Shown: in pieces, positions 9,935-11,112 of the stretch | Layout: each line of letters opens with the position of its first letter | How positions within the stretch are numbered: the first letter of the stretch is position 1 | NCBI RefSeq assembly: GCF_016026235.1 | Contig: NZ_CP065613.1 | Length of the DNA: 64,000 bases | Direction: 5' to 3' (one strand) | Source of the DNA: Escherichia coli | GTDB taxonomy: Bacteria; Pseudomonadota; Gammaproteobacteria; Enterobacterales; Enterobacteriaceae | Translations under genes and position numbers: made by a program | The notes under the pieces: model-generated | Told to the model about the DNA's origin: nothing | The model's input: the letters and a program-made list of their open reading frames with translations, nothing else | Database searches by the model: none

Positions 9935-9966
9935 GGCGCGCAGTATAGAGGGTTTGCGCGCTCTTG

Positions 9967-11112
9967 TCACCCCGCGTTGCGCATTCCAATCGCCAGTGTC
10001 GCGGCGATATTACGTGAAGCACGGCAGATATTGTCATAAGCCCCGCGGAATGCTTCGTCCAACGTACCAATGCTGGTCAGTACGCTGAAGACCGCATCAA
10101 TGCCATGCTGATGTACAACGCCAACATCATCGGTCAGGCTACCCGCAATGCCAATCACCGGTTTATGGTACTTCTTCGCCACGTTTGCGACACCAATCGG
10201 TACCTTGCCGTGAATACTCTGGCTGTCAATACGCCCTTCACCGGTGATCACCAGCGTACAATCGTGAATATGCTCCTCCAGATTCAGCGCCGTAGTGACG
10301 ATTTCAATACCACTTTTCAGTTCCGCACCAAGAAACGCCATTAGCGCCGCGCCCATACCACCCGCAGCTCCTGCGCCGGGGACATCTTTCACATCAACAT
10401 GCAGCGCTTTTTTAATGACCTCGGCATAGTGAGAGAGGTTATTGTCCAGCTCAACAATCATCGCTTCACTGGCTCCCTTTTGTGGGCCAAAGATGCGCGA
10501 TGCGCCGTTATCGCCCACCAGCGGATTGGTGACATCACAAGCGACGCGAATGACGCAATCTTTTAAGCGCGGATCGAGGCCGGAAATATCAATATCATTC
10601 AGAGTATTAAGACTACCGCCGCCAAAACCAATTTCATTGCCGTTGGCATCGCATAATTTCGCCCCCAGCGCCTGTACCATGCCTGCGCCGCCATCATTTG
10701 TAGCGCTGCCGCCAATGCCGATAATAATGTTTGTCGCGCCGCTCTCCAGCGCCTGCAGGATTAACTCGCCTGTGCCGCGTGAAGTGGTCACGAGTGGATC
10801 GCGTTTTTCCGCAGGTACCAGCTCCAGCCCACTGGCCGCCGCCATTTCAATAAACGCGGTTTTGCCATCGCCGGAGATCCCCCAACTGGCATTCACTTTC
10901 TCGCCCAGCGGCCCTGTAACCCAGGCGTGACGTTCGGAACCCTGGGTGGCTGCAATCATCGCTTCCACCGTTCCTTCGCCACCGTCGGCAACAGGAACAG
11001 AAACGTACTGTGCATCAGGAAAAATTTCCCGAAATCCTTTTTCTATCGCCTGCGCAACCTCGCTGGCAGATAAACTTTCTTTATAAGAGTCTGGGGCGAT
11101 TACGATTTTCAT
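9967..11112 (-). CDS. garK: glycerate 2-kinase
   Basis: ORF track 9967..11193; start set at MKIVIAPDSYKESLSA (381 aa). Confidence 0.85.
   Translation of the reverse strand: MKIVIAPDSYKESLSASEVAQAIEKGFREIFPDAQYVSVPVADGGEGTVEAMIAATQGSERHAWVTGPLGEKVNASWGISGDGKTAFIEMAAASGLELVPAEKRDPLVTTSRGTGELILQALESGATNIIIGIGGSATNDGGAGMVQALGAKLCDANGNEIGFGGGSLNTLNDIDISGLDPRLKDCVIRVACDVTNPLVGDNGASRIFGPQKGASEAMIVELDNNLSHYAEVIKKALHVDVKDVPGAGAAGGMGAALMAFLGAELKSGIEIVTTALNLEEHIHDCTLVITGEGRIDSQSIHGKVPIGVANVAKKYHKPVIGIAGSLTDDVGVVHQHGIDAVFSVLTSIGTLDEAFRGAYDNICRASRNIAATLAIGMRNAG

Follow-up and report, generated by a model that had tools for sequence, protein, structure and literature searches.

The proximal promoter of Escherichia coli rnpB, its stringent response and mutations in its −35 element are the topic of Jung & Lee (1997) and of Park et al. 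(2002), and promoters lying further upstream of rnpB are the topic of Motamedi, Lee & Schmidt (1984), whose title speaks of 'tandem promoters'. A genome-wide CRISPRi preprint (10.1101/2020.03.04.975888) treats garP-garL-garR-garK-rnpB as a single transcription unit containing the internal promoter rnpBp, and illustrates intra-operonic promoters with this same locus. The rnpB promoter, its adjacency to garK and the garPLRK-rnpB unit are already known, annotated and used in the literature. What we add here is small, namely the exact overlap of the promoter with the end of the upstream gene, the occurrence of this overlap in 91 of the 120 species listed and in two gene contexts, and a wobble base at the overlap that is only ever a purine.

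The window, by which we mean the whole stretch of DNA analysed, is 64 kb of an E. coli chromosome, for which NZ_CP065615.1 is a 100%-identical record and the source of the RefSeq coordinates. The 1-kb region around the rnpB/garK junction is 100% identical to NZ_CP065615.1 and is found in 5,425 of 5,426 complete E. coli genomes, and the 116-bp junction region itself is present at an identity of at least 95% in the same proportion (5,425/5,426). RefSeq gives the gene order garK, rnpB, yhaC, with garP, garL and garR upstream and co-oriented. The genes and the signal that they share are as follows.

9558..9934, minus strand: rnpB, the class A RNase P RNA (M1 RNA), from the RF00010 match and the RefSeq annotation, with its 5′ end (+1) at 9934
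9967..11112, minus strand: garK, glycerate 2-kinase, 381 aa, from NF007668 and the RefSeq annotation
9967..9969, minus strand: the garK stop codon TGA, from the open reading frame and RefSeq, its bases common to the −35 hexamer of rnpB
11209..12099, minus strand: garR, co-oriented and upstream of garK, from the annotation of the identical record and the open reading frames
12129..12899, minus strand: garL, placed in the same way, co-oriented and upstream of garK
12915..14249, minus strand: garP, placed in the same way, co-oriented and upstream of garK

The RNA gene at 9558..9934 (minus strand) matches RNaseP_bact_a (RF00010) over positions 1-367 of the 367 in the model, with a cmscan score of 318.6 bits (gathering score 100), and GarK matches the glycerate 2-kinase equivalog NF007668 over residues 1-381 of 381 with 845 bits, the cut-off being 686. 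The gap between the two genes (9935..9966) is 32 bp, with the same spacing in the RefSeq annotation of NZ_CP065615.1. The first-pass annotation had put the M1 RNA 5′ end at 9934 and the garK stop codon at 9967..9969, 32 bp apart, and these coordinates proved exact by cmscan, open reading frame and RefSeq alike. The mechanically called garK open reading frame has 408 aa and begins with an ATG at 11193, which adds 27 codons (window 11113..11193, minus strand) ahead of the annotated start at 11112. On the other side, yhaC (8264..9451, plus strand) is convergent with rnpB and stops about 70 nt past the rnpB terminator on the opposite strand; the translation of its reading frame has a high content of Asn, Ile, Lys and Ser.

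A promoter scan found GTGACA-17-TATACT at 9970..9942 (minus strand), with 10 of 12 consensus matches, and this is the sole match with 10 or more in 2 kb. Its parts, numbered relative to the 5′ end of M1 RNA, are the following.

9965..9970, minus strand: −35 hexamer GTGACA (−36..−31), from the promoter scan and species conservation
9948..9964, minus strand: spacer of 17 bp, variable at −30..−22 and with AAACCCTC conserved
9942..9947, minus strand: −10 hexamer TATACT (−13..−8), intergenic, from the promoter scan and species conservation
9935..9941, minus strand: GC-rich discriminator (GCGCGCC) separating the −10 from +1, read from the sequence and conserved

The −10 ends at −8 relative to 9934, the first base of the RF00010 match, which is the correct distance to a transcript 5′ end, and we take the G at 9934 to be the primary (triphosphate) 5′ end of M1 RNA. 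Within the −35, bases 9969..9967 are the garK stop codon TGA, and 9970, the first G, occupies the wobble position of garK's final sense codon, which encodes Gly. It had been proposed that the rnpB promoter abuts garK, and both the sequence and the promoter scan bear this out, with the garK stop contained in the −35 at 9965..9970. The accompanying proposal that the −10 and −35 both fall within the last garK codons stands for the −35, which takes in the stop codon and one wobble base, but fails for the −10 at 9942..9947. The −10 and the discriminator lie wholly inside the 32-bp gap and are therefore non-coding, so that only the −35 touches garK.

By the measure of its GC-rich discriminator, rnpBp would be a stringent-type promoter. 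One spacer base, 9962 (−28), is A in the window and G in K-12 W3110 and the other three strains aligned, and a 90-bp query from the window spanning this base is identical in five of 5,425 E. coli genomes (the window and four others). An UP element within the garK codons was considered and rejected, as the region from −38 to −60 is GC-rich and without an UP-like tract, and in E. coli VG48B2 an IS421 end lies there. Two weaker promoter-like sites, with 9 of 12 matches, are located within garK on the rnpB strand (10126..10154 and 10721..10748, minus strand), and these might be related to the 'tandem promoters' that Motamedi et al. (1984) name in their title.

The comparison across species used one genome per species and required the exact first 24 bases of rnpB, yielding at least 120 loci in the Enterobacteriaceae and Erwiniaceae; because the species are related and an exact 24-mer was required, the counts that follow do not represent independent events, and the sample is not free of bias. 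[G/A]TGACA is present at −36/−37 in 118 of the 120 species among the matches listed, TATACT is present at −13 in 76 of these 120, and nearly all have TAnnnT at −13/−14. In an ungapped alignment of 80 species TGACA is invariant, as is AA at −20/−19, and the −10 (TATA.T / TAT.A.T) and the discriminator CGCGCC (C.CGCC) are invariant or nearly so; the −30..−22 spacer and the upstream third-codon positions vary freely in the same alignment. GTGACA-17-TATACT is thus not a chance match, since [G/A]TGACA is kept in 118 of the 120 listed species and the 116-bp region in 5,425 of 5,426 complete E. coli genomes. As read from the alignment, this pattern of conservation is the signature of a presumably functional, conserved promoter. 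The only two of the 120 species listed without [G/A]TGACA belong to Siccibacter (L029 and L101); both have TTGCAA, an 18-bp spacer and TATACT, with the end of garK 57-90 nt upstream.

Searching with GarK (tblastn) placed garK directly upstream of rnpB in 61 loci among the matches listed, and in 54 of these (54 of the 120 species listed) the TGA in the −35 is the garK stop codon. The remaining seven of the 61 loci, from Atlantibacter, Cedecea, Buttiauxella and Siccibacter, have a garK stop (TAA, TAG or TGA) that precedes the −35 by 7 to 90 nt. A second gene context is found in 37 Erwiniaceae species among the matches listed (L014, L103, L121 and 34 others), where it is rsmI, not garK, that ends on the TGA of the −35; the genera with this rsmI-rnpB junction are Pantoea, Erwinia, Tatumella, Mixta, Izhakiella and Winslowiella. 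The upstream open reading frame of about 294 codons was recognized as rsmI by its match to NF011570 (597 bits versus 502), which gives its product as the 16S rRNA C1402 2′-O-methyltransferase.

The stop codon and the −35 therefore overlap in 91 of the 120 species among the matches listed, in two unrelated gene contexts, and all 91 of the overlapping stops are TGA, as the −35 requires; garK and rsmI stops that do not overlap it are TAA, TAG or TGA. At the wobble position before the overlapping TGA, where the −35 begins, 91 of 91 listed species have G or A and none has T or C. Nearby fourfold-degenerate sites use three to four bases, and the Gly and Ala codons at the overlap are themselves fourfold degenerate. 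A T at this wobble position would turn the −35 into the consensus TTGACA. The last sense codons at the overlap, among the species listed, are distributed as follows.

Last garK codon: GGG in 45, GGA in 5, AGG in 4
Last rsmI codon: GCG in 16, GAG in 10, GGG in 9, GGA in 2

E. coli also has rsmI, at a distance from rnpB.

34888..35748, minus strand: rsmI of E. coli, about 25 kb from rnpB, with a TAA stop and a hairpin plus T-run at about 34848..34876

In five further species rsmI lies 6-7.5 kb upstream of rnpB and co-oriented with it, and its stop is TAA in all five; at the garK-adjacent loci among these (L011, L047 and L101) the spacing fits a gar cluster that occupies the space between rsmI and rnpB. 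Gene order suggests that the gar cluster may have been inserted between rsmI and rnpB and that the rsmI-rnpB arrangement may be ancestral. Just after the E. coli rsmI stop (34872..34890, minus strand), GAGTAACAGTGCCGAAGC resembles a collapsed GAGTGACA...GCCGAAGC, that is, the −35, discriminator and +1 of rnpB. The 8-mer GCCGAAGC at about 34880, which is like the discriminator plus +1..+5, was considered as a remnant of the rnpB promoter downstream of E. coli rsmI; it was judged to be probably a chance occurrence, because five other species lack it in their rsmI 3′ flanks.

We conclude that the junction very probably represents the known sigma-70 promoter of rnpB, autonomous and internal at the end of the garPLRK operon, with a core made up of the 32-bp gap and the garK stop codon. 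Transcription would start at the mature 5′ G, 9934, after GTGACA, the 17-bp spacer, TATACT and GCGCGCC, and rnpB expression would be independent of read-through from gar. The overlap would be the tightest packing that keeps both signals, spacer DNA having been lost and the shared bases then having been held by a double constraint. The double constraint is indicated by the stop, which is always TGA, together with the wobble base, which is always a purine and never the T that would give TTGACA.

A bolder reading of the same overlap is that the placement of the upstream stop codon inside the rnpB −35 has been selected, beyond being tolerated. It draws on the fact that garK and rsmI end on the same TGA, and on the wobble purine, which keeps the −35 one step from TTGACA. 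If this were so, translation termination on the −35, or the lack of an untranslated gap for Rho loading, might tune initiation or the fate of read-through RNA; alternatively, the non-consensus G of the −35 might be needed for stringent control. We consider such selection unlikely. Spacer loss followed by purifying selection, the course that we favor, fits the graded series of distances between the garK stop and the −35 across genera (0, 7, 10, 22, 48, 57 and 90 nt), the same end state reached with the unrelated gene rsmI in Erwiniaceae, and the freedom of the stop codon (TAA, TAG or TGA) once the overlap is released.

The autonomy of rnpBp follows from CRISPRi results, from a natural insertion and from species in which garK is not upstream. 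In the preprint cited above, guides against garK, garR, garL and garP produce no fitness defect, whereas guides against rnpBp or rnpB do (10.1101/2020.03.04.975888). In E. coli VG48B2 (NZ_CP128584.1) an IS421 element of the IS4 family, at 1655-3010 of the listed locus (L002), sits exactly between garK and rnpB, and its target duplication, GGTGACAAGG, leaves the garK stop intact on one side and the rnpB −35 intact on the other. The two genes are now about 1.3 kb apart and everything upstream of about −38 is IS sequence, so that the sequence upstream of about −38 of rnpBp is dispensable. VG48B2 is one of five E. coli genomes in which the garK-rnpB junction is disrupted. In Lelliottia nimipressuralis and three Enterobacter species (L025, L028, L061 and L113) the 3′ end of garR is directly upstream of rnpB, ending (...KLAKVEVAR, TAA) about 20 nt before the −35, and the rnpB promoter is unchanged; no garK was detected upstream of rnpB in these four by tblastn with GarK.

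As to transcription arriving from upstream, a scan for terminator-like sites on the minus strand found none in 9551..11400, and the fold of a 106-nt stretch comprising the garK end and the leader is no more stable than those of shuffled sequence (z = −0.40). The first-pass annotation had seen no terminator in the garK 3′ end, and neither scan nor fold gives a GC-rich hairpin with a U-run there. Because the TGA inside the −35 is the garK stop, ribosomes would translate right up to the promoter, leaving no space for a terminator, and with garK translated up to the −35 there would be no untranslated stretch before rnpB. Given this lack of room, polymerase coming from garP most likely passes through rnpB as far as 9550..9523.

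9523..9550, minus strand: rnpB intrinsic terminator, a hairpin with a 12-pair stem (6 GC pairs) and a T-run, with a TTTT tail

Transcripts reading through from gar would encounter no other terminator-like site before this one, which is in use as a standard part (PMC3643576). Read-through from gar into rnpB is plausible and, on the sequence and the cited work taken together, most likely occurs.

The possibility of read-through gives rise to the idea of a functional coupling, in which the overlap was selected so that transcription through the upstream gene (garK or rsmI) provides extra or back-up M1 precursor, for instance under conditions in which stringent control turns the promoter off. The overlap in 91 of the 120 species among the matches listed and in two unrelated contexts, the lack of any terminator ahead of rnpB, and the fact that rsmI, like rnpB, serves the translation apparatus all speak for such a coupling, but knock-down of the gar genes has no fitness effect (10.1101/2020.03.04.975888). 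The viable IS421 insertion, which puts about 1.3 kb between garK and rnpB, also argues against it, as do the several lineages that have no upstream garK, or longer gaps, and yet an unchanged promoter. In addition, Ko et al. in 2008 reportedly found that a model upstream rnpB transcript is degraded in an RNase E-dependent manner and not matured to M1 RNA, and we know of no pathway for M1 RNA 5′ maturation. We therefore regard selection for coupling as quite improbable, and return to the autonomous promoter as the reading to be preferred.

The first-pass annotation had raised the potential for promoter occlusion, alongside that for precursor formation. In its regulatory form, garPLRK induced by galactarate, glucarate or glycerate would drive polymerases over rnpBp and so lower initiation at rnpB. 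Co-orientation and the absence of a terminator make collisions physically possible, but rnpB is essential and its promoter is conserved whatever the upstream gene, which argues against a gar-specific regulatory role, and a literature search on rnpB and transcriptional interference found nothing relevant. Occlusion as the meaning of the overlap thus seems very improbable. Literature searches on rnpB with yhaD or garPLRK, or on pM1 RNA, found nothing useful.

An inverted repeat, GGCGCGCA(N12)TGCGCGCC, spans the spacer, −10 and discriminator, with 7 bp in the window and 8 bp in K-12, the pair missing from the window being due to the rare A at 9962. That this repeat forms a hairpin in read-through RNA or a DNA cruciform, as a signal for processing, pausing or termination, is hardly credible and was rejected: the hairpin is present in the minimum-free-energy fold and E. 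albertii has one compensatory pair (GGCGTGCA/TGCACGCC), but the fold is like that of shuffled sequence (z = −0.40), there is no U-tract after the repeat, its 5′ arm falls in the variable spacer, and covariation is lacking, with 74.3% of cells paired versus 75.4% in shuffles and the observed values reached by 494-495 of 500 shuffles.

Whatever its history, the overlap has practical consequences, as a tag, deletion or scarless knock-out that alters the last garK codon or its stop also alters the −35 of the essential rnpB, and a synonymous change of the last garK codon from GGG to GGT would create a consensus −35. A single triplet that is read in two codes, as stop codon and as part of a −35, is a clean small example of its kind; its value as a discovery is small, and its use lies in annotation and engineering.

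Compared with the described systems, the window agrees with the E. coli rnpBp ('P-1', a promoter with a GC discriminator) in locus and elements, the only difference being A for G at 9962. It likewise agrees in layout with the garP-garL-garR-garK-rnpB unit, in which an internal promoter rescues an essential downstream gene. The rsmI-rnpB junctions of the Erwiniaceae have the same rnpB promoter architecture as E. coli, with the upstream TGA stop within GTGACA; they differ in the −10, which is TATTAT, TATCAT or TACACT rather than the TATACT of E. coli, and in a −35 that lies one base further upstream in 20 species among the matches listed. More generally, rnpBp resembles the class of internal promoters located in upstream coding sequence, in that one of its elements overlaps the 3′ end of the co-oriented gene before it; it differs from that class in that the overlap is confined to the stop codon and a single wobble base, the −10, discriminator and start site all lying in non-coding sequence.
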